Of a stretch of 64,000 nt of DNA, positions 5,955 through 44,291 are shown piece by piece. The position numbers were made by a program, and so were the translations under genes. The notes beneath the pieces were generated by a model that saw nothing but the letters and a program-made list of their open reading frames with translations, was not told the origin of the DNA and searched no databases. The first letter of the stretch is position 1, and every line of letters begins with the position of its first letter. The stretch comes from a virus (Duplodnaviria > Caudoviricetes): positions 64,001-128,000 of the IMG/VR virus record IMGVR_UViG_3300037424_000564. One strand, written 5' to 3'.

Positions 5955-6802
5955 TTGTTATTCCTTTGTCTCAAAGTTTTAGCAATTTCATCGCCGTATA
6001 TTTCTTCGTATGTTTTACCTTTTGTTATATTTGATTTTTTTCTTTTTTTTCTTATATTTTTAGGTTGTTTATTTTTTAACATAAATTCTTGTAATATTTT
6101 TTCTATATGATCTTTATTATAGGATTTAATTTTATTACAATTTTCAATATCAGTCAATTTTATTATATCTAATATTACCCAATTAGTTTTAAATCCTTTT
6201 ATTCTATAAAATGTATCATTACATACAAATTCAAGTTCTTTTCTATCATCTATATATAAATATTCTTTTGTTATTATGTTAATAATGAAATATAATTTTC
6301 GATTTATATTCTTTGTTTTTTTTCTTGTATAATCTGATACCTCTCTATTTTTCATTTGAATACTTCTTAATTGTTTTAATCTAATGGATTCATCTTTTCC
6401 AAATATTTCTTCGTATGTTTTTCCTTTTCTTATATTTGATAATTTATTTCTTATTTCATTTTCATATGGGTGATCTTTTAAATTATATGAATATCGTTCA
6501 CCACCAAGAGTCATATTATATCCATTACTATTATCAAATCCTATATATGAATTAAAATATTTTATATAAAATATTTCTCTATTACATAAATCATTTTTTG
6601 TTTTACATTCTTCTAATATTTCCCATATAAAATTATTAAATCCATATTTACGAATAGCTTCATGGAAAGCTTTATATTTTTCACTTTTTCTTTTTGATTG
6701 TAGATAATGTCGTCTTTGATATTTCTTAAAATCTTGAGTCGTTATGCCTATATAACATTTATCATTAATTGTATTTGTTACTTTATAAACTATACCAAAC
6801 AT
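5951..6802 (-). CDS. GIY-YIG homing endonuclease
   Basis: GIVYKVTNTINDKCYIGIT, GYNMTLGG, GKTYEEIFG repeats; CATAAATA late-type promoter in a 10-bp hairpin (6813-6822/6840-6849). Confidence 0.85.
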   Translation of the reverse strand: MFGIVYKVTNTINDKCYIGITTQDFKKYQRRHYLQSKRKSEKYKAFHEAIRKYGFNNFIWEILEECKTKNDLCNREIFYIKYFNSYIGFDNSNGYNMTLGGERYSYNLKDHPYENEIRNKLSNIRKGKTYEEIFGKDESIRLKQLRSIQMKNREVSDYTRKKTKNINRKLYFIINIITKEYLYIDDRKELEFVCNDTFYRIKGFKTNWVILDIIKLTDIENCNKIKSYNKDHIEKILQEFMLKNKQPKNIRKKRKKSNITKGKTYEEIYGDEIAKTLRQRNNK

Positions 6803-6844
6803 AAAAATTCTCCATAAATAGATATAAATTCTGTATACTTCTAT

Positions 6845-7021
6845 TTATGAAAAACTACTATTTTCCTTTTTAATATTTAAATTTTCCTTTTCTTTTAATA
6901 GTTCAAGATATAGTTTCATAAGTTCAGGCGCATGAATAATATCTGCTTTTTCTTTTATTTTCACAGTACCATCCCTGAAATATCCAGTACCCATATATAC
7001 ATATTTGCTGTAATCTTTCAT
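6845..7021 (-). CDS. small hypothetical protein (58 aa, MKDYSKYVYMGTG...)
   Basis: Translated by hand; fills the gap between co-oriented genes; weak RBS. Confidence 0.45.
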   Translation of the reverse strand: MKDYSKYVYMGTGYFRDGTVKIKEKADIIHAPELMKLYLELLKEKENLNIKKENSSFS

Positions 7022-7732: not shown

Positions 7733-7876
7733 TTAATAAGTAACTGCGATATTCAAAGCACAAGCAGCCGACCAGTAAAGAATTTTTCGCCAATCAGTCC
7801 AATCTACCAATGTATAATTGATAGCAGAAATAGCACAAAGAATTATCATAATCGTTGGAAATATTTTAGGATTCAT
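7733..7876 (-). CDS. small two-helix membrane protein (47 aa, MNPKIFPTIMIIL...)
   Basis: Translated by hand; TAATG overlap with upstream gene. Confidence 0.6.
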   Translation of the reverse strand: MNPKIFPTIMIILCAISAINYTLVDWTDWRKILYWSAACALNIAVTY

Positions 7877-8118
7877 TAATCTTGACCAAACTGAACAAAT
7901 ACTTTTCCGTATCGATCCCCATATTTTTCTTTATCCTTATAGATGTCTTCTCTATAGTCAAGAATATAAAATCCATCAGAATATTCATCAACCCCTTCAA
8001 GAGGAACAAATTCTGAACATGTCTGATATCCTGAAGTATATGTTTTCAGAACTTCAACAATCGCACCTTTAGGCAGACTTTGGAGTTTTTCTATGAGTTG
8101 TTCAACTGTTACTTCCAT
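7876..8118 (-). CDS. hypothetical protein
   Basis: 80 aa, GGAGGG RBS, TAGACA-type promoter upstream. Confidence 0.65.
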   Translation of the reverse strand: MEVTVEQLIEKLQSLPKGAIVEVLKTYTSGYQTCSEFVPLEGVDEYSDGFYILDYREDIYKDKEKYGDRYGKVFVQFGQD

Positions 8119-8177
8119 ATAATTCCCTCCTTATTTGTTCCTTACAATAACAACAAATAAATTTATTGTCTATTTAA

Positions 8178-8768
8178 TTATGCGTACCATGACATATAAT
8201 GTTTGGATGTTTCGGTTGTTGATTGCATCGACCCGTACTTAGTCGAGAAATAAGCCTTAGATCCATAACATTTAATACGTTTCTGCATAGGGTCATCATT
8301 CGTAAAATTATCTTTATCAGGGGATACTTGACAACTCATAAATCCATCGCTACCATTAACATGTTTACCATGGATACGTTTGATCGTAGCAGTTTTGCCT
8401 TTGACTTCAATGACTTGGTAGAAGTCAACGTTGGTTTGATCGTATCCCCATGAATGACAAAAGATATCACCAACATTAACAATGATATTATCATTATCTA
8501 CTTTTTCTTTTGCTTTCTTTTCAGCTTTTGCTTCGAATGTGGATTTTACAAATTCAAACTGATCATTGATATATGATCGCATTTTATCTTCTGAATTGAA
8601 CCTAATATAGAAATCATGTTTAGTACGTTTTCCACCATAACCAATCGCAAAGAAATAACCATTAACCGCAGCTACAGTATAGAATACTTCGTATTTAACG
8701 GTAGAGTCTTCACGATGACCGTTACAGAAACTAGGAACCATGCGGTTTGGATTGATTTCGGATTTCAT
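8178..8768 (-). CDS. hypothetical protein (start probably MKSEIN)
   Basis: GDIFCHSWGYDQTNVDFYQV motif familiar from phage/plasmid hypotheticals; AAAGGAG RBS before the ATG at 8768. Confidence 0.6.
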   Translation of the reverse strand: MKSEINPNRMVPSFCNGHREDSTVKYEVFYTVAAVNGYFFAIGYGGKRTKHDFYIRFNSEDKMRSYINDQFEFVKSTFEAKAEKKAKEKVDNDNIIVNVGDIFCHSWGYDQTNVDFYQVIEVKGKTATIKRIHGKHVNGSDGFMSCQVSPDKDNFTNDDPMQKRIKCYGSKAYFSTKYGSMQSTTETSKHYMSWYA

Positions 8769-9791: not shown

Positions 9792-11138
9792 TTATTTAAT
9801 TTTGTTTTTTAGTTCCTTAAGATCATTTAGCCACATATCTTCCAATGAAGTTTCTGTGATAATTTTAAGTTCTTCTTTTTTGTTGGATATTTGTTTCTTT
9901 AATTCATCAATTGTGTCAGATGAAAAACTATGGATTGGCATTCTCAATAGATAATCAAATGAATCATCTACTTTATAAAAAGGGAAATCTTTATTATCTT
10001 CAATCTGTTTTATGATAATTGATTTGCTTGTTTTAAATACTTTAATCTTTTCTTCAAGAATAAACTTGACAAAATAAAATTTACTTCCAATTACCATTAA
10101 TTCTTTTTTTACTTTTTCAATTAAATGTATTTTACGCAGATCATAATAATGCAATCTAACTTCCATGTACTTATCTAGTATTTCTTTAATACTATCAAAT
10201 TCAACAATTTCATTATTAATACCAATACATGTATAGTTTTCTGTGATCTTACGTACTAATTTTAATTTATCAATAATATATTCATCATCTTTTTTTGTAA
10301 ATTCTCTAGGAACTTTAATTTCGAACAGAAATTTATTTTGTTTTGGTTCTGACATATCAGTATAGTCAGCTATAACTTTATCTTCTTCTAATTTGGTTAG
10401 TATATCATTATATTTTTTAAGATTATATCCAACAGGAAGTTCGGTAACTAAAATAGTTGTAGTATTTTTAATTTCATATGTACCAAAAATTTCAAATGTA
10501 TTTGGACTAGTCTGTAAGATTCTACCCTTAAAGCCATTAAAATAAGGCAACAGAATTTTAGGAGTCTGTCTCCTACCTTTGCCAGAGATTTTATCAACTA
10601 AAGTTTCTATAATTTCTAAAGGATTTCGAGATAGAATCTTTTGGCTGAACCCTGTTCCGATACCTTCAGATCCATTGACAAGTATAATAGGTATAATAGG
10701 AACATAATACTTAGGTTCAATACGCTTACCTTCAAATTCTTGTTCAATCAAAATAGCTTCATCTTCAGGATGGAAAATGGATTCAAACATTTTTTCTTTT
10801 GTCACGTAGATATATCTAGATGAACCTGCTTCTGGAATACACACAGATCCAAAGTTACCTTTTGGTTCAATTAGATTAATATTATTTGTACCTACGAAAC
10901 TTTGAGCCATTCCTGTAATTACATCTTCAAGAGACTTTTGCCCATGAAGATATTCGAGCATATCAGTAACTCTAGCTGCTAATGATGCTACTTTTGTTTT
11001 TTCTTTGAGAGTATTTGCTGAACATAATGCTTTGCGAGAAGATGGTTTCTGTCCATCCATAAAATTACCAAGTCCACGAAAGGCAGAATAGGTAGCAAAA
11101 GCACTAAAATCATCACGGAAGAAATGTTTTATTTTCAT
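9792..11138 (-). CDS. gp52: DNA topoisomerase II, DNA-cleavage subunit (T4 gp52-like)
   Basis: DGQKPSSRK, YLHG, catalytic SRYIY, IIPIILVNGSEGIGTGF. Confidence 0.95.
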   Translation of the reverse strand: MKIKHFFRDDFSAFATYSAFRGLGNFMDGQKPSSRKALCSANTLKEKTKVASLAARVTDMLEYLHGQKSLEDVITGMAQSFVGTNNINLIEPKGNFGSVCIPEAGSSRYIYVTKEKMFESIFHPEDEAILIEQEFEGKRIEPKYYVPIIPIILVNGSEGIGTGFSQKILSRNPLEIIETLVDKISGKGRRQTPKILLPYFNGFKGRILQTSPNTFEIFGTYEIKNTTTILVTELPVGYNLKKYNDILTKLEEDKVIADYTDMSEPKQNKFLFEIKVPREFTKKDDEYIIDKLKLVRKITENYTCIGINNEIVEFDSIKEILDKYMEVRLHYYDLRKIHLIEKVKKELMVIGSKFYFVKFILEEKIKVFKTSKSIIIKQIEDNKDFPFYKVDDSFDYLLRMPIHSFSSDTIDELKKQISNKKEELKIITETSLEDMWLNDLKELKNKIK

Positions 11139-11147
11139 TTATTATCC

Positions 11148-12326
11148 TTAAAGTGTGTTGATATTAAATTCAATACCACGCATTTGTTCTTTTCTAAAGT
11201 CAACTGCTTTAGAGTGCATCCAATTATATATAACTTCATCATCACCTTCTTCATATTCAAAATCTTGAATAAAGTGATCAATTCCATATGTAGTAATCAA
11301 TTTACTTAGATCACTAGCTTCCCATGTCGCCAATCCTTTATAATAAGTATATTTTAATCCTGCTTTTTTATTAGTATTATAATCAGTTAAAGTAAAATAG
11401 AAATCTTTAATATTTCCAGATTTATCAAAACCAGCAACAATTGGTGTTCGAAGGAATTTAATTTTATTAGCTTTCAGTAATGATTTCCCATATTTGAAGA
11501 AAAATACCAACAATAATCCACGAATCGCCATACCATCCAAATCTTGGTCTGATGCTATCAAAACATATTGATAGTTTAACTCAGTTTGGATATCTTTGTC
11601 AAGTCGCATGTTCAAAATTTGAGAAATGTTTCGAATTTCATCATTAGATTTGAGTTTGTCAATCTTAACTTCCAATACATTTAATGGTTTACCTTTGAGA
11701 GGAAAGAAAGAAAATGTATCCCTTCCAAGCACACTCATAAGACCATTATTTGCAGAATCACCTTCTGTGAGAACGAGATATTTTTTTTCCTTAATAGCAG
11801 GATAATATTTCTCAACTCTCATTTTCTTTTTTTGTTGATTTAATTTCCGTAGCTCGACATTCTCCTTAGTTTGTAGTTTCAATTTATATGATTCTACAAT
11901 AGGAAGAATGATTTCATCGTTTTTAATAATTGATTTCAAAAGAGTTTCGTTGATCAGATCATCAATTAACTCTTTGAAATTATTAGATGAAATCAATCTC
12001 TCTTTAGTTTGACTGTCAAACTGAGGATTACTCATTCGAATTGAAAGTAAAAGAAATATTTTAGATTTAATATCAATAGGCTTTACTTCGAGTTTATGTT
12101 TCTTTTTCAAGAATACTCTAATATATTCAACGATTTTGGCCACTGCGTACTCGACATGAGTACCACCACGAATAGTATAAGCACCATTGACAAAACTCAT
12201 TTGCTGAAATTCTGTATCTGAATAAAACAAAGCAACACGACCATTATTAATCTCATTTGATTCATAGATAGGGTAAATCTTCTCAACAAAACCTTTCAGT
12301 TTCGGAACTGCTATTTTAGTGTACAT
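11148..12326 (-). CDS. gp39: DNA topoisomerase II large subunit, C-terminal part (transducer + TOPRIM)
   Basis: FDSQTKERL (QTK loop), TEGDSA, PLKGKPLN, DQDLDG, YYKGLATW. Confidence 0.9.
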   Translation of the reverse strand: MYTKIAVPKLKGFVEKIYPIYESNEINNGRVALFYSDTEFQQMSFVNGAYTIRGGTHVEYAVAKIVEYIRVFLKKKHKLEVKPIDIKSKIFLLLSIRMSNPQFDSQTKERLISSNNFKELIDDLINETLLKSIIKNDEIILPIVESYKLKLQTKENVELRKLNQQKKKMRVEKYYPAIKEKKYLVLTEGDSANNGLMSVLGRDTFSFFPLKGKPLNVLEVKIDKLKSNDEIRNISQILNMRLDKDIQTELNYQYVLIASDQDLDGMAIRGLLLVFFFKYGKSLLKANKIKFLRTPIVAGFDKSGNIKDFYFTLTDYNTNKKAGLKYTYYKGLATWEASDLSKLITTYGIDHFIQDFEYEEGDDEVIYNWMHSKAVDFRKEQMRGIEFNINTL

Positions 12327-37910: not shown

Positions 37911-38181
37911 TTTTCTTTGCCTTTCTGAAATTAGCAAGAACAGATCCAAATAGAGCAGAGTGAGATAGAATCCATTCAAACATTTCATCGTCTTCTTTTT
38001 TATCTAGTTGGTATTTTGCTTGCATAGTTAAAAAATATCGATATTTTGTTTCTAGCCACCATTCAAATGATTCCATATCAACAACTTCTACTGCTGATAA
38101 CCATGCATCCAATTCAGTTCCAGCTAACATTTCATCAATTGTTGCCATTCCTGCTTGTTTCATTCGTTCATCTAAAGTCAT
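37900..38181 (-). CDS. hypothetical protein
   Basis: 93-aa ORF downstream of promoter 38224-38270. Confidence 0.6.
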   Translation of the reverse strand: MTLDERMKQAGMATIDEMLAGTELDAWLSAVEVVDMESFEWWLETKYRYFLTMQAKYQLDKKEDDEMFEWILSHSALFGSVLANFRKAKKNGN

Positions 38182-38223
38182 TAGTATTCCCCATTATTCT
38201 AATAAAATCTGGCCACATAATAC

Positions 38224-38270
38224 AAATCCTCCTTTCTAGAAGTATAACCCAGAAAGGAGGATTTTGTCAA
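38224..38270 (-). promoter_or_regulatory. sigma70-type promoter with spacer/RBS inverted repeat
   Basis: TTGACA-18 nt-TATACT; 14-bp inverted repeat 38224-38237/38251-38264 carrying AGGAGG. Confidence 0.8.
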
Positions 38271-38287
38271 GTGCAATTTTCCATTTT

Positions 38288-39670
38288 TTACTGAATACCT
38301 TTTTCAGTGTTTACTATGACTTCTTCAAAAGTGATAGTTCTAACAATAGGAATATTATTATAATCATCAAGTTTGAATACTTCTTTGAGAGCAATAACTT
38401 CATTACCTACTTCATCTAGTCTACAAGTAGTAAGACCTTCGTTAGTTTCAATGAGAGTTAATCTACCTTTTTTGCTATTTTTACCGGGAGCAATTTTGAA
38501 CACATCTTGCCATTCTCCATCAATAAGAATAGCACAACATTTCATTGCAAATCCAAAGGTATCACGGTTAGAATGTTGTAGTAGTGCGCCACCCATACCA
38601 AATCCAACATTATCAGCAGCAAATCCTTTCCATTTGAGAAGAGATAGGATTTCTTCAATAGAATCACGATTGATTCCATCGCCTTGAATAACTCTAACAC
38701 AACTAGGAAGAACTTTATATCCTTTGCTATTAATAGTGAAACCAAAATGTTTCATTAGGATTTCAACACAACGAGCAACGGTTTGTGCTGGATCACCAGA
38801 GTCAGGACGAATGACCAGAGTGCCGCCCATATTAATTACTTCTTCTTTTAGTTCAGTTCCCCACATTTCACAGGCATTGAAAATATTGTAACTATCAGAT
38901 ACACATGCTACAATATTCCCCGGCCCACCATATTGCTGAAGCATATTGCGATATGCTTCGACTTCTTTATCCTGACCCCAAGATGTGATTGTGCTGTGTT
39001 CAGATGCTGGAATGCTAAAACCAGCCATAGCACAATTATAGTATTCATTAGCATACAGAATACCTTCAACAGTATCACTTCCCATGAAGTTGACAAGGTG
39101 AGCAGATCCACCAATTCCAGCAGATTCACTAGAACTTACGCCCCTTGCACCAAAATCATGAAGTTTGAACATAACTTGATCTTGATCATCAGAAGTCAGT
39201 TCCAGATACTTCTTGATTGTTTGCTTACAATCATAGGAAATAGTGGCAACAGAAGAAGGATACCAAATAGCACGTAGTAGTGCAGTTTCAAGGAAACTAG
39301 CAATCCAGAAACATTTTGGATCTGTACATTCGATAGTAAGGAGGACATTACTATTACGAAGAACAGTACCTTCTGGTACAGCTTTGATAATTACTGGCAT
39401 AAAGCCATTATATGTTTTAAGAATATATTCCCATCCTTCACGATTGAAGGGTTCCCCATGACTAGCAAAAAAGATAGCGGCTTGATCAATATCTTTTTGC
39501 GTGATGGGGTTTAGAAGATGGTCTTTGATGAAAATCTGAAGACCATAAAATAGTAGATGACTTCCGGCTCTTGCCTCAATATAAGACATCATTCCTTGGG
39601 TCTTAGGAGGGTATTGTTTCCAGTGACTACTTTTATAGCTATCACTTTTGAGAATTAGATTGTTGACCAT
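38288..39670 (-). CDS. nadV: nicotinamide phosphoribosyltransferase
   Basis: DSYKSSH, LHDFGARG, IPASEHS, ACVSDSY, IRPDSGDP, QGDG, FGMGG. Confidence 0.95.
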   Translation of the reverse strand: MVNNLILKSDSYKSSHWKQYPPKTQGMMSYIEARAGSHLLFYGLQIFIKDHLLNPITQKDIDQAAIFFASHGEPFNREGWEYILKTYNGFMPVIIKAVPEGTVLRNSNVLLTIECTDPKCFWIASFLETALLRAIWYPSSVATISYDCKQTIKKYLELTSDDQDQVMFKLHDFGARGVSSSESAGIGGSAHLVNFMGSDTVEGILYANEYYNCAMAGFSIPASEHSTITSWGQDKEVEAYRNMLQQYGGPGNIVACVSDSYNIFNACEMWGTELKEEVINMGGTLVIRPDSGDPAQTVARCVEILMKHFGFTINSKGYKVLPSCVRVIQGDGINRDSIEEILSLLKWKGFAADNVGFGMGGALLQHSNRDTFGFAMKCCAILIDGEWQDVFKIAPGKNSKKGRLTLIETNEGLTTCRLDEVGNEVIALKEVFKLDDYNNIPIVRTITFEEVIVNTEKGIQ

Positions 39671-39814
39671 TTAAATGCACTCCTTTTTATTGTCTTCTTC
39701 AACAATTAGGCTAAGTTGGCCGCAAGCAGCACCTGCATTGATTTCAGCCTCAGTAGCAATAGCAGTAGCAAAATCGAAACCAGCTTCTTTGAGTTGTTCT
39801 TGTACAGTTTTCAT
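39671..39814 (-). CDS. 47-aa peptide equal to the C-terminal helix-strand-AACGQL segment of RlmN/Cfr enzymes
   Basis: Translated by hand: MKTVQEQLKEAGFDFATAIATEAEINAGAACGQLSLIVEEDNKKECI; RBS GAAAGGAAGTGAT; TAA directly followed by the nadV ATG. Confidence 0.85.
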   Translation of the reverse strand: MKTVQEQLKEAGFDFATAIATEAEINAGAACGQLSLIVEEDNKKECI

Positions 39815-39888
39815 AGTATCACTTCCTTTCTGTTATAGGATTATTCCCAATAGATTGTATATCTAAATATTTCCTTCTGATCTTTGCA

Positions 39889-40083
39889 TCAATTATGGTC
39901 TACTACCTTAATGAAGATAGTTTTAGTGAAGGACTGTTGACCGTTAGGATCAACATATCTTGGTTGATGAATCGCAGTAAACTCATATGTTCCATCAACC
40001 AAAGCAACGAATTCGACAATAAGATCCCGGTTATCAACCCTAAATTGATCACATACCATCTGAGCAACAACTGAGTTTTTCAT
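39889..40083 (-). CDS. small hypothetical protein
   Basis: 64 aa, AAGGAG RBS, TTGACA-17-TATTCT promoter at about 40100-40132. Confidence 0.65.
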   Translation of the reverse strand: MKNSVVAQMVCDQFRVDNRDLIVEFVALVDGTYEFTAIHQPRYVDPNGQQSFTKTIFIKVVDHN

Positions 40084-40149
40084 ATATCTCCTTGTTTAAA
40101 TAGAATACGATAATTTTAGTTTTATGTCAATTAAAAAATTCAATTCCAT

Positions 40150-41061
40150 TTATATGATAATTTCTCCACCAAATCCAGTTCGAAGGTAGGAACCATCAAA
40201 CACCAAGTTTGATTCATTTCCTTTAGCAAAATCACTATTATATCTAGCATAAATTTTAACTAAACTGTCACCATCTTTAGGATTGAAGACATAGTTTCTG
40301 CATTCACAACTACCTTTATTATTCCATGTTTGGTAGTGTAAGATATTTTCTTTATTGGATAAATCAATATCACGAAAGTCAATATGATTATCAGTACAAT
40401 AATCATTAACTTTCATTAGTGTAACAAATCCAACATCACGAACACCGACAGATGCAGACCATTCCAGATATTTACACATTTCTTCATAAGAGTCAATATA
40501 ACCTTTAACTAAATTACAAGAAAAATGAATTTTGTGTTTATTGTGAAGATTATTCAATTCATTATTTGTGGGAATATTAATGAACGAATTGATGCCAAAT
40601 ATTTCTGAATTTTTACGTTCATTATAATGATGTCGGGACAAAGCAACACTATCAATTTCATCCATATCCATTAATTCACTAATATTGTAACCATTAGTAT
40701 TAGCCACAATAAATGATTTTGGACTAACTTCTTTTGTTTTGATTAGGATAGATTTGAAGTTATCAATATCCAGAGAAAGTTCACCACCAGTAAAACTGAT
40801 TTTATTGATGATAATTTTTTTCTGTAATTCTGACATAACATAATAAAATTTATGCAAATCAAATTCTGTATTTTCCTGACTACAAAACTCACAGAATTTA
40901 CATTTCGCCTGACACTTTTCAGTTACTTTTACGTAGATATTTACATAAGGATCTTTGACATGCCATAGATCATTGCAAAGATTCTTCTGACAATGATAAT
41001 CCTTTGTCATGATTGTTTTATTAAAAATATCGATTTTCATAATAGTCCTCTTAATTAACAA
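40150..41061 (-). CDS. radical SAM protein
   Basis: CQAKCKFC, SFTGGE, NTNG, ALSRHH; C-terminal CECR. Confidence 0.85.
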   Translation of the reverse strand: MLIKRTIMKIDIFNKTIMTKDYHCQKNLCNDLWHVKDPYVNIYVKVTEKCQAKCKFCEFCSQENTEFDLHKFYYVMSELQKKIIINKISFTGGELSLDIDNFKSILIKTKEVSPKSFIVANTNGYNISELMDMDEIDSVALSRHHYNERKNSEIFGINSFINIPTNNELNNLHNKHKIHFSCNLVKGYIDSYEEMCKYLEWSASVGVRDVGFVTLMKVNDYCTDNHIDFRDIDLSNKENILHYQTWNNKGSCECRNYVFNPKDGDSLVKIYARYNSDFAKGNESNLVFDGSYLRTGFGGEIII

Positions 41062-41342
41062 CCACCAGTTCTACTTCCAGAATATCCTCTAGAACAAGGA
41101 TCTACGGTAGTAGGTTTGTTCTTGGTTTTTACATTTGATGCATCTTGCTCTACTTTGACGTGAAGAACAATATCAAACATAGCAAATACAATATTTAGAG
41201 CATCTTTAGAAATAATTGTAGACATTTCAGTAGATGTACAGATATCCATAAAAAGATCATTGATTTTTGTTGTCGGAACACCAGAGGCAACAATTTTCTT
41301 ACGCATACCGATTAGGAATAGAACTTCATCTTTAAGTGCCAT
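41055..41342 (-). CDS. small protein with Cys/Gly/Ser-rich C-terminal tail (RiPP-precursor-like)
   Basis: 95 aa ending TVDPCSRGYSGSRTGGC; overlaps the start of the radical SAM gene. Confidence 0.6.
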   Translation of the reverse strand: MALKDEVLFLIGMRKKIVASGVPTTKINDLFMDICTSTEMSTIISKDALNIVFAMFDIVLHVKVEQDASNVKTKNKPTTVDPCSRGYSGSRTGGC

Positions 41343-41429
41343 GATTTGTCTCCTTTTGATTATAAAATTCTTCTCTATTAATTTTTTCAGACTTCCACAC
41401 TTTATTTGTTTCTCTAAGACCTTTTGGAA

Positions 41430-41711
41430 TCATAATAACTCTTCTTTCTTTTTAAAATATTGTTCCTTTGTAAGAATTATACAATTCCACCCTTTATAAG
41501 ATTCTCTTAATCCCTTTGCTACATTTTTTAAAAATTGTGGTGTTTTAATTCCTAATTCTTTACATTTTTTAACAAAATCACCACAAAAAATTATTTCTTC
41601 ACCAGTAGGAGTTATTATAATATAATAACCTACATTATTAGCACTTTCACCTATAATCCCTTTATGCGAATTGCTCATTTTTTTCTTTACATCATCTGAT
41701 AACTTTTTCAA
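41430..41711 (-). pseudogene. homing endonuclease remnant (NUMOD3-like DNA-binding part only)
   Basis: KKKMSNSHKG NUMOD3-like motif and YIIITPTGEEI...YKGW C-terminal module; TTG start, no catalytic domain. Confidence 0.55.
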
Positions 41712-41713
41712 TA

Positions 41714-42496
41714 TCAGACTAGATTATTACCTTTTATAATCCCTTCACCTAAGTTATTAGATTCACTAATAGAATTTAAATTTATAGGGCTAATTTTTAT
41801 GAAAAAATAATCAGGATCAAAATATTTACGAAGTTTATTTATATCGAAATCACAGTAATCAACGAGAGTTAAATTAACTGTAGTTTTGAGATTACTCTTA
41901 GTACGAATCTGGCCGAGTTCTTCAATACTCATGAGATTATTGATAGGAATCAATTCATGCCGCCGATCTTCATCAAGAGAGTGAAGACTGATTTGAAGGG
42001 TAATATTTCCTTCAATCCAAGAGAAGTCAGAATCACGAATACCAACAGTAGAAACGTAGTGGTGAACATTAGGATATGCTTCTGAAAGTTGATTAATAGC
42101 ATATTTTACATTTTCGATATTTAGAAATGGTTCACCCATTCGTGTCCAGTTAATTTTGAATTCTTCCGAATATGAAGGATGAATATGAGAGTTTTTATCA
42201 ACAACAAAAAAAACTTGATCAAACATTTCATTTGGAGTAAGATTTCTCCAACCTTTCATTTGACCAGTTGCACAGAATTTGCAGCCAACAGGACAACCAC
42301 TCATAGTCGAAACACCAACCATCCAACGTTCAGACCGACTTCCGATATCTTTGGAGTAAAGAGCATTAGTATTATTAGGGCAGTTCTTAGTATAGAATGG
42401 AAGAAATGTATCAGTAGTTTCAATCAACATCCCATCTTCAAGTTGAAGACAATGAACAGATCCATTAGTAAATTTACGATTACGAAGTTCTTTCAT
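41714..42496 (-). CDS. RlmN/Cfr-like radical SAM methylase lacking its C-terminal segment
   Basis: IET, VSTMSGCPVGCKFCATG, RNLTPNEMFDQV, RMGEPFLN, VSTVG, LQISLHS, IKISPIN; stops before the AACGQL motif. Confidence 0.85.
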   Translation of the reverse strand: MKELRNRKFTNGSVHCLQLEDGMLIETTDTFLPFYTKNCPNNTNALYSKDIGSRSERWMVGVSTMSGCPVGCKFCATGQMKGWRNLTPNEMFDQVFFVVDKNSHIHPSYSEEFKINWTRMGEPFLNIENVKYAINQLSEAYPNVHHYVSTVGIRDSDFSWIEGNITLQISLHSLDEDRRHELIPINNLMSIEELGQIRTKSNLKTTVNLTLVDYCDFDINKLRKYFDPDYFFIKISPINLNSISESNNLGEGIIKGNNLV

Positions 42497-42507
42497 TTGA
42501 TATACTC

Positions 42508-42792
42508 CTATTTAATAACCGAACAGTTGTCAATTCTCCAAGAGCAAACACCGTCAGTCACTCGAACTTTACTGTTTTTCTCACCAGAGGCATCAACACC
42601 AACAGAAGTGATCTTGACAACTTTATAATCGCAGTCACAATAGCTAAAAACGAGGACTAAATCACCTTTCTTTATGGTCATATCTTCCATAATGAATTCA
42701 CCAATTACGGAGAAATCTCTCTCGCTGTGATATTTCACGAAGTTATGATTAATTTTAGATGCTTCCTCTTTAGTGATAGTTCCGAGTTCCAT
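42508..42792 (-). CDS. hypothetical protein
   Basis: 94 aa, AGGAGG RBS; first gene after promoter. Confidence 0.65.
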   Translation of the reverse strand: MELGTITKEEASKINHNFVKYHSERDFSVIGEFIMEDMTIKKGDLVLVFSYCDCDYKVVKITSVGVDASGEKNSKVRVTDGVCSWRIDNCSVIK

Positions 42793-42847
42793 AAATCCTC
42801 CTGTCGTTAGGTGAGTTAACTATACGACAGGAGGATTTAATTGTCAA
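42792..42847 (-). promoter_or_regulatory. sigma70-type promoter with spacer/RBS inverted repeat
   Basis: TTGACA-17 nt-TATAGT; 16-bp inverted repeat 42792-42807/42824-42839. Confidence 0.85.
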
Positions 42848-42864
42848 TTTAAAAATATGAATAA

Positions 42865-43329
42865 TTATCTGGCGAGTGGTGCTGATTTGATTGTATGAAT
42901 TAGTTTGAATGTATCAGTATCCTCGCTATCCTTATTATAAATAATTTCTTTGCCATTTTCATTATCATATATATATGTTTCATTTAGTCTATCATACTTT
43001 ACATCATAAATCTCTTTTGGAAGAATAATACCAACAGCAGTCAATGCTCCATCAAGAGAATCATCATCTTCTCTAAAATAAGCCCAAGGATATTTTGCAG
43101 TAGAAAATAATAATCTTAGCTCACGTAGATCTTTATTATTACCACCATTACAAACAATCATAGTTTTATGATTTTCTAACCAATCAAAATACATCAAAAT
43201 AGGTTTCGAATATATGGCAGACTGAATATTTTTTCCATGTGAAATAGCAAGTTCACCAAGAACATGAGCAGATTGGATTCCTTGTTGGATAGATGAAAGA
43301 TAATAATTCACGAAAGTATATAGTCTCAT
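42865..43329 (-). CDS. putative peptidyl-tRNA hydrolase (PTH2-like) domain protein
   Basis: QQGIQSAH, HKTMIVCNGG, FREDDDSLDGALTAVG pattern of a conserved T4-like family. Confidence 0.5.
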   Translation of the reverse strand: MRLYTFVNYYLSSIQQGIQSAHVLGELAISHGKNIQSAIYSKPILMYFDWLENHKTMIVCNGGNNKDLRELRLLFSTAKYPWAYFREDDDSLDGALTAVGIILPKEIYDVKYDRLNETYIYDNENGKEIIYNKDSEDTDTFKLIHTIKSAPLAR

Positions 43330-43658
43330 TTTAATTCCTTTGCAATTAAGCGTAATAGTTCAGTAGATGCATCATCAGGATGCATTGTTTCACCTTGATA
43401 TGTTTCGCCATATTGCATCCAATGTGCATTATACAATTTTTTCATTTTATCTGGTGTTCGGTCCCAAATATCACGTTTTAATGCACTAGAGTCTGGTGTC
43501 CATAGAGAATACATGTTACGAATATATCTACCTACACTATGATGAAGCACATTTAGTCCTCTTTTTTCTTTTACCATTTGAAGATATTCTAACTCTTCTG
43601 GTTCTAATTCTTTGAAAAAATCTTCAATAACTTCTTGTACTTTAGTGTATTGTTTCAT
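43326..43658 (-). CDS. hypothetical protein
   Basis: HHSVGRYIRNMYSLW and HPDDAS motifs of a conserved phage hypothetical family. Confidence 0.6.
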   Translation of the reverse strand: MKQYTKVQEVIEDFFKELEPEELEYLQMVKEKRGLNVLHHSVGRYIRNMYSLWTPDSSALKRDIWDRTPDKMKKLYNAHWMQYGETYQGETMHPDDASTELLRLIAKELK

Positions 43659-43671
43659 GTGTATGTATCTC

Positions 43672-43773
43672 CTATATGTTATAACTGTTAATTAAAAATA
43701 CAATTTCATATATGCAAAATAAAACAATATATACCAAAAAAACAAGACTGACACCAAACATAAAATTGCTCAT
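43672..43773 (-). CDS. small hydrophobic peptide (33 aa, MSNFMFG...)
   Basis: Translated by hand; AAGGAG RBS. Confidence 0.5.
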   Translation of the reverse strand: MSNFMFGVSLVFLVYIVLFCIYEIVFLINSYNI

Positions 43774-43783
43774 AATAATCTCC

Positions 43784-43933
43784 TTAATAAGTTGCTAATA
43801 TAACAAACATAAAGCATGTTAACAAAAAGCATATAATAGTATATAATATATATTTTACTCTAATAGAGCATAATAATAATAAAATACTACTTATCAAAAG
43901 ACCAAATCCGAAACCAAATATGAAATTGCTCAT
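43784..43933 (-). CDS. small hydrophobic peptide (49 aa, MSNFIFG...)
   Basis: Translated by hand; AGGA RBS; start region duplicated with 43773. Confidence 0.5.
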   Translation of the reverse strand: MSNFIFGFGFGLLISSILLLLCSIRVKYILYTIICFLLTCFMFVILATY

Positions 43934-43952
43934 AATAATATCCTATATGTAT

Positions 43953-44291
43953 CTACCATGTTTCAAGTTTTCCGGATTCATAGTCATCAAAGCACTTATC
44001 ACAAGCATCGAATCCGCCCCACTCTTTGTCCCAATCATGAGGCACTGGTATTCCTTCGTACATAGGGATACCTTTTTTACAGTTATACACTTTTTCGCTA
44101 CAGATACAGCATTCGCTTTCGTGAGGCCAAAAAGGTTCTGGTATAATAATGTAATTAATCGGTGCATCGTCAACTACAAATGTATATTCCAAATCATTAA
44201 TGTTCATTATATTATTATCACCATGTAAAGTTTTATAAACTTGTAATTGATATTGGAAACTTTCTTTTGTTGCTTTAATTGGTGTTTTCAT
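43953..44291 (-). CDS. hypothetical zinc-binding protein
   Basis: CCIC...CDKC; coupled to NMNAT stop. Confidence 0.6.
   Translation of the reverse strand: MKTPIKATKESFQYQLQVYKTLHGDNNIMNINDLEYTFVVDDAPINYIIIPEPFWPHESECCICSEKVYNCKKGIPMYEGIPVPHDWDKEWGGFDACDKCFDDYESGKLETW

Follow-up and report, generated by a model that had tools for sequence, protein, structure and literature searches.

A candidate two-chain RlmN/Cfr-type radical SAM enzyme, with its cysteine loop on a separate small peptide, in a family of phages

Two cysteines carried by a single chain define the class A radical S-adenosylmethionine (SAM) methylases. These include RlmN, the C2-methylase of 23S rRNA A2503 and tRNA A37 (PDB 3RFA, 5HR7, 6FZ6), and Cfr, the C8-methylase of 23S rRNA A2503 (PDB 9P0P). 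Roles have been assigned in RlmN to C355, to C118, and to the glutamate E105, which deprotonates the carrier cysteine (PMC9692996). The residue C118 (C105 in Cfr) is indispensable for release of the covalent enzyme-RNA adduct (PMC9692996; PMC2836569): function is abolished in Cfr C105A (PMC2836569), and the RlmN C118A mutant traps the covalent adduct (PMC9692996; PDB 5hr7). Here we analyze a stretch of 64,000 nucleotides (nt) from a virus of the Caudoviricetes (positions 64,001 to 128,000 of IMG/VR record IMGVR_UViG_3300037424_000564; hereafter, the window), which probably encodes a heteromeric enzyme of the RlmN/Cfr type composed of a core of 260 amino acids (aa) and a 47-aa peptide. In the split phage family to which this pair belongs, one of the two defining cysteines is found on a free peptide, and the other has been lost.

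The closest match of the core in both sequence and fold is RlmN, and the CxxxCxxC motif, a glutamate (Glu26) equivalent to E105, MGEP, and AACGQL are all present across the two chains; unlike RlmN, the pair has its carrier cysteine on a separate product, a glycine in place of C118, and no counterpart of the N-terminal domain (residues 1-79). Class A architecture and motifs are likewise shared with Cfr, although the core has no C105 equivalent, the carrier cysteine again stands on a separate product, and none of the present data show resistance-type activity. Fused phage RlmN-like proteins (e.g., the 319-aa protein of Stenotrophomonas phage ANB28) are also phage-borne, also lack the RlmN N-terminal domain, and are homologous over the whole core, but they are single chains that keep the C118-equivalent cysteine and belong to the other deep clade of the tree. 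Phage genes are also known to be split by homing endonucleases, as in nrdA of Aeromonas phage Aeh1, where two separately translated pieces reassemble into one enzyme. The window resembles split nrdA in having a homing endonuclease remnant in the gap, and differs from it in that a split of this type is conserved across unrelated phage groups and that the small piece carries a catalytic residue.

The core protein and the cysteine peptide

Both open reading frames (ORFs) described in a first-pass annotation, made from the nucleotide sequence alone, were recovered with the core motifs and the 47-aa sequence reported there, including the cysteine at residue 31, and both lie on the minus strand, which carries all genes across 38.2-43.7 kb of the window (Table 1). 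The core contains CPVGCKFC, RMGEP, ISLHS, and IKISPIN, its Cys68, Cys72, and Cys75 are the residues of the CxxxCxxC cluster, and it passes the Pfam Radical_SAM family (PF04055). Profile alignment, which that annotation had proposed for both ORFs, succeeded for the core. The core matches the NCBIfam RlmN model (TIGR00048) over profile positions 102-244 of 355 with an E value of 1.2e-20 and 73.8 bits, short of the 290-bit RlmN equivalog cut-off, and it matches solved RlmN/Cfr chains in the PDB by sequence (E values of 4e-11 to 5e-9). The AlphaFold2 (AF2) model of the core has a predicted local distance difference test score (pLDDT) of 79.6 and retrieves RlmN/Cfr as its top seven Foldseek matches. 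It superposes on residues 80-319 of E. coli RlmN (Z 15.0, root-mean-square deviation [rmsd] 3.1 Å, 209 residues), and in structural comparison the top six entries are all RlmN/Cfr (Z 12.9-15.0), with the next family, PflA, at Z 8.9.

Because the model covers RlmN 80-319 only, the core is without the equivalents of RlmN 1-79 and 320-384. Residue 1 of the model corresponds to RlmN residue 80, and the loop that holds the methyl-carrier cysteine (C355 in RlmN, C338 in Cfr) is not on the core chain, its motif occurring in trans only. Glu26 of the core, which precedes the segment TTDTFLP (in ...IETTDTFLP), occupies the position of RlmN E105 and Cfr E91, is invariant among homologues, and falls within the predicted peptide interface.

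The 47-aa ORF had been read as the missing C-terminal helix, strand, and AACGQL loop in order, and the fused relatives bear this out. The core and peptide of five phages are colinear with the fused ANB28 protein, whose own alignment with Cfr runs from end to end and takes in its ...GGGCGQLW tail. Two other fused proteins, P0299 and P0335, sit inside the split clade of the tree and contain a linker of ~10 residues, with the split core sequences ending before it and the peptides starting after it. P0299 occurs on 4 contigs, of which the three shown come from three samples. Its tail aligns with the peptide profile (hhalign probability 93.6, E value 2e-7), and its AF2 model (pLDDT 86.3) fits the RlmN-tRNA complex 5hr7 with Z 28.8 and rmsd 2.4 Å over 267 residues, model residues 1-318 corresponding to RlmN 80-360. 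This fit places the helix, strand, and cysteine loop equivalent to the peptide on RlmN ~325-360.

The peptide gene itself, of which this genome has one copy, is preceded by the strong ribosome-binding site previously attributed to it (Table 1). Compared with its closest relative, the ORF is changed at 21 of ~24 synonymous and 4 of ~78 non-synonymous sites (proportions of synonymous and non-synonymous sites changed, pS and pN, of 0.87 and 0.05, respectively), and its mean pN/pS is 0.25, substitution patterns that indicate strong purifying selection.

Prediction of the core and peptide as a complex gave a score of 0.74, compared with 0.00 for the best control; for calibration, this mark is reached by 58 of 80 solved complexes and by 2 of 110 mismatched pairs. 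The runs share at least 73% of contacts, the pLDDT of the partner is 59, and peptide residues 13-18 are predicted to pair with core strand 231-237, while the peptide also contacts the N-terminal sheet, including Glu26. The modeled complex supports two-chain binding, short of proof. Taken with the fused relatives and the co-occurrence of the two genes described below, it favors the earlier suggestion that the enzyme works as a two-chain complex.

Several observations weigh against a functional RlmN/Cfr-type pair. The N-terminal RNA-binding domain of RlmN (E. coli residues 1-79) is missing from the core, and Gly61, located seven residues ahead of the cluster motif and aligned with RlmN C118, stands in for a residue that neither RlmN nor Cfr can do without, such that canonical methyl transfer is not assured. 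Within the complex prediction, the cysteine loop lies outside the confidently placed residues, the score may partly reflect model memory of the single-chain RlmN fold, and, as our own alignments were supplied, the calibration holds only roughly. Searches of PDB sequences with the peptide alone, and with a 17-sequence peptide profile, retrieve no RlmN, and because these direct searches fail, the link between peptide and RlmN rests on the fused intermediates and on structure. Lastly, the window sequence was found in four sediment-metagenome runs, all of them DNA and none RNA.

The split as a trait of a phage family

The protein database contains 2163 homologues of the core, and the 122 that were examined are 257-283 aa long, none with a CGQ tail. 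It also contains 2858 clusters of stand-alone peptides (39-89 aa), one of which is found on 437 contigs. We define these here as a split phage RlmN-like family, with a peptide pattern of G[FY]D[FY]..A[IV]AT..E....AACGQL; the window shows its features, namely a core of ~260 aa, glycine at the C118 position, and a separate same-strand peptide of ~40 aa nearby. Phage sequences in which the family is conserved number in the thousands and come from gut, wastewater, and sediment, and we found no description in the literature of a split or C118-less phage RlmN/Cfr enzyme. Some of the peptides are named RlmN by JGI, and the "RlmN" labels that annotation pipelines give to both pieces probably overstate what is known of them. 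A megablast search of the region against phage records returned no matches.

Core homologues that routinely occur without the peptide, which the first-pass annotation had named as a sign against a two-chain enzyme, are not what is seen, as a peptide gene lies near the core gene in 79 of 80 IMG/VR loci and in 37 of 38 loci from GTDB genomes. The two genes are adjacent in 43 of the IMG/VR loci; in 33, the genes for a 255-aa radical SAM enzyme and a 148-aa methyltransferase-like protein stand between them, and in three, a homologue of the 303-aa radical SAM enzyme encoded in the window does so (one of these, L010, has the 255-aa/148-aa pair as well). The corresponding GTDB counts are 17, 17, and 1; another two GTDB loci have the peptide gene upstream of the core gene. 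Across the two collections, the genes were seen adjacent, 1.2 kb apart, or with wider spacing. A position downstream of the core is not universal for the peptide gene: in L140 (1856-4783) the order is permuted, with a radical SAM enzyme gene first, the peptide gene second, and the core gene last. The sole IMG/VR core locus without a peptide gene, L030, looks recently rearranged, given that only 164 aa remain of its nested 255-aa radical SAM enzyme (7780-8274) and that the DNA downstream has been replaced.

The closest cultured relatives illustrate the range of layouts. The crAss-like Kehishuvirus "tikkala" has a 262-aa core and a 43-aa peptide, whose genes are in different frames with 2 nt between them; in Moorella phage MTATph1, the products are 274 and 40 aa long and the genes share a frame, 15 nt apart; and one ORF separates the genes in Pectobacterium phage Wc4. 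In the closest relative (76% identity), the genes are 5.6 kb apart, the largest distance seen, and the peptide is 86-90% identical. In Vibrio phage D479, a 93-aa ORF (L004, 2800-3081) contains two tandem cysteine modules with two AACGQM units, reminiscent of tandem carrier domains; in P0126, only the loop is duplicated. About half of the loci have the two genes side by side, which makes the 1.9 kb gap of the window a local elaboration. The split itself is a trait of a large phage family, ancestral there and older than any single endonuclease insertion.

These layouts bear on two readings in which the 47-aa ORF would not be a gene product in its own right. The first is that an insertion cut an RlmN-like gene and left the small ORF as a decaying remnant, as might be suspected from the homing endonuclease remnant directly after the core gene and from a related locus, L013, where a duplicated core 3' end follows an intact endonuclease. 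In every relative, however, the core stops at the same point, even where 15-30 nt separate it from the peptide gene; the small ORF is equipped with a start codon and a ribosome-binding site of its own and shows the substitution pattern described above; and no stops or frameshifts were seen in the peptide ORFs of 116 loci. On these grounds the broken-gene reading is extremely unlikely, and was rejected.

The second is that a joint product arises from the two ORFs, at the level of RNA or of protein, via an intron, programmed frameshifting, read-through, or protein splicing, for which the same-frame arrangement in MTATph1 would be well suited. Against this, an Rfam search of window positions 38000-44000 returned no intron and only a chance small RNA match, and the 1.9 kb separating the two ORFs is densely filled with coding genes. 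The two frames differ in tikkala and in the window, the distance is variable, every unique peptide ORF collected from relatives has its own ATG, and a split intein would need a longer peptide. Joining by intron, frameshift, or intein was accordingly rejected, and we regard any such route as having next to no likelihood.

The missing resolving cysteine and the candidate reaction

Glycine occupies the C118 position in 122 of 122 close homologues and in 28 of 28 representatives of the split type, and no conserved cysteine beyond those of the cluster was found among the aligned core homologues. With the resolving cysteine absent, canonical RlmN turnover cannot be assumed. The tree, built from 95 complete representatives, divides at its deepest branch (support 99/97) into 35 proteins that all have the C118-equivalent cysteine and 60 that all lack it. 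On the side without the cysteine, a subclade (98/93) contains all 28 Gly-type split proteins, and its sister clade, which also lacks the cysteine, is mostly fused. Members of this sister clade such as P0316, P0344, P0313, P0332, P0339, and P0369 are single chains of ~300-545 aa with Ile, Met, Thr, or Ala at the C118 position, and they keep the C-terminal xCGQ loop; as far as we found in the literature, the clade is uncharacterised. The mostly fused state of the sister clade indicates that loss of C118 preceded the split and is not unique to it, which argues for an alternative means of adduct resolution, while still being compatible with a persistent cross-link.

In the reaction that we propose for the heteromeric enzyme, the core would supply the [4Fe-4S]/SAM site together with Glu26, whose counterpart in RlmN removes the proton from the carrier cysteine. 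The strand of the peptide (residues 13-18), modeled beside core strand 231-237, would complete the barrel and allow the flexible AACGQL loop to lie over the active site. By analogy with RlmN and Cfr, Cys31 would take a methyl group from SAM, a second SAM would yield a 5'-deoxyadenosyl radical and thereby a Cys-S-CH2 radical, and this radical would add to an sp2 carbon of the substrate. Glycine in place of the resolving cysteine requires a different final step: some other base would have to resolve the adduct, or the peptide would remain attached. The methylation of Cys31 and the exchange of the peptide, both of which had been put forward earlier, are likewise putative.

If the peptide stays attached, it could be a consumed co-substrate, which at each turnover would be bound to the target base through a methylene thioether bridge before a fresh peptide docks, so that the nucleic acid is tagged and not methylated. 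This is suggested by the invariant glycine, as exactly such an adduct is trapped by RlmN C118A (PMC9692996; PDB 5hr7), by the free-peptide form of the cysteine segment, which suits a stoichiometric reagent, and by the tandem modules of D479 and the duplicated loop of P0126. The sister clade, however, lacks C118 and keeps the cysteine segment fused. A single-turnover suicide enzyme would be costly there, and the adduct is thus probably resolved in another way; we consider the co-substrate reading unlikely, although worth keeping in view. A broader version, similarly doubtful, is a peptide-tagging system in which a peptide of ~40 aa is left permanently linked to an adenine in the RNA or DNA of host or phage, with the nested radical SAM modules acting on the same peptide or adduct.

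The split family points to a phage activity on RNA or DNA. It also provides a natural system for two questions, namely whether a methyl-carrier loop can act in trans, and how, if at all, an adduct is resolved without C118.

The genes between core and peptide

The core and peptide genes are separated by four ORFs, as the earlier annotation had counted and the ORF list confirms (Table 1).

Table 1. Features of the core-peptide region, in window coordinates
Feature	Position	Strand	Basis
Promoter-like site, 11/12 matches, tentative, upstream of a 94-aa ORF and the core gene	42819..42847	minus	site scan
Core subunit, RlmN/Cfr-like radical SAM barrel, 260 aa	41714..42496	minus	sequence, profile, and structure matches
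GIY-YIG/NUMOD3 homing endonuclease remnant, 93 aa, C-terminal DNA-binding part only, TTG start	41430..41711	minus	weak NUMOD3 and PHROG endonuclease matches
95-aa protein, Gly/Ser/Cys tail ending in Cys; stop overlaps start of the 303-aa enzyme gene	41055..41342	minus	ORF reading, related loci
Second radical SAM enzyme, 303 aa, pairs with the 95-aa protein as accessory module	40150..41061	minus	family matches, related loci
Promoter-like site, 10/12 matches, tentative, upstream of the 64-aa ORF and the small gene	40102..40130	minus	site scan
64-aa ORF between the 303-aa radical SAM gene and the small gene	39889..40083	minus	ORF reading
Shine-Dalgarno-like AAGGAAGTGAT, 3 nt before the small-gene ATG	39818..39828	minus	read from sequence
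Small subunit, 47 aa: helix, strand, AACGQL loop (Cys31), ~RlmN 325-360	39671..39814	minus	ORF reading, alignments, models

The 303-aa radical SAM enzyme and its partner recur in related loci. A locus search with the single 303-aa sequence found nothing, and an alignment query was required; of 12 loci with a close homologue, 10 have it nested between the core and peptide genes. Every inspected close homologue is preceded by a protein of 83-127 aa whose Gly/Ser/Cys tail nearly always ends in cysteine. Translationally coupled pairs of such a cysteine-tailed protein and a radical SAM enzyme of ~300 aa were observed in the window (40150-41342) and in L008 (4801-5966), L013 (8744-9864), L093 (6686-7891), L097 (6709-7909), and L098 (6597-7879). 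In L097 and L098, the pair stands alone beside a NadR-like adenylyltransferase gene, without the RlmN-like pair.

A different module fills the gap in ~45% of loci (L017, 7780-8968, and 49 others). It consists of the 255-aa radical SAM enzyme, whose start overlaps the core stop, and the 148-aa class I methyltransferase-like protein, whose gene overlaps the peptide start. This 255-aa enzyme occupies the gap in crAss-like relatives, and it was not found in the genome of the window. Two unrelated radical SAM modules recur at the core-peptide junction, and a portion of the DNA in the gap is an accessory module seen repeatedly, as opposed to random filler. This recurrent nesting suggests a larger pathway. 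The chances that the nested modules are functionally linked to the RlmN-like pair are about even, and the junction could instead be the sole insertion site that the operon tolerates.

The same nesting raises the prospect that the peptide is itself the substrate, in the manner of a ribosomally synthesized and post-translationally modified peptide: the core would modify its cysteine, and the nested radical SAM modules would elaborate it further. The tight packing of a second radical SAM gene and its partner exactly between the core and peptide genes in ~45% of loci, and the nested position of the 303-aa homologue, are what such a pathway would look like. The peptide is, however, homologous to an integral element of RlmN (barrel strand and catalytic loop) and forms one chain with the core in natural relatives. 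An extra enzyme is lacking from about half of the loci, and the 303-aa enzyme has a cysteine-tailed partner of its own and is present in L097 and L098, where there is no RlmN-like pair. These points make a peptide substrate improbable, and the heteromeric enzyme remains the reading that we prefer.

The 93-aa endonuclease remnant shares 41% identity with the C-terminal portion of a 280-aa GIY-YIG enzyme that is encoded intact at the same place in L013, where its gene is followed by the duplicated core-gene 3' end. Homing endonucleases ring the L013 locus, two of the GIY-YIG and one of the HNH type (6219-6986, 7847-8747, and 10859-11671). After the middle one, a 46-aa ORF repeats the last ~14 residues of the core and looks like the footprint of an insertion, and a 183-aa YqeY/GatB-like gene is also present in that gap.

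The 64-aa ORF next to the peptide gene has no matches in family searches and no homologues in related loci; the 94-aa ORF upstream of the core is likewise without homologues there, and neither is therefore counted as part of the system. The promoter-like sites upstream of these ORFs come from a scan in which the overall number of sites was not above chance expectation. Directly 3' of the peptide gene, the window encodes a nicotinamide phosphoribosyltransferase (38288-39670, minus strand), the gene for which is syntenic with the pair in L008, L010, and L020-L022.

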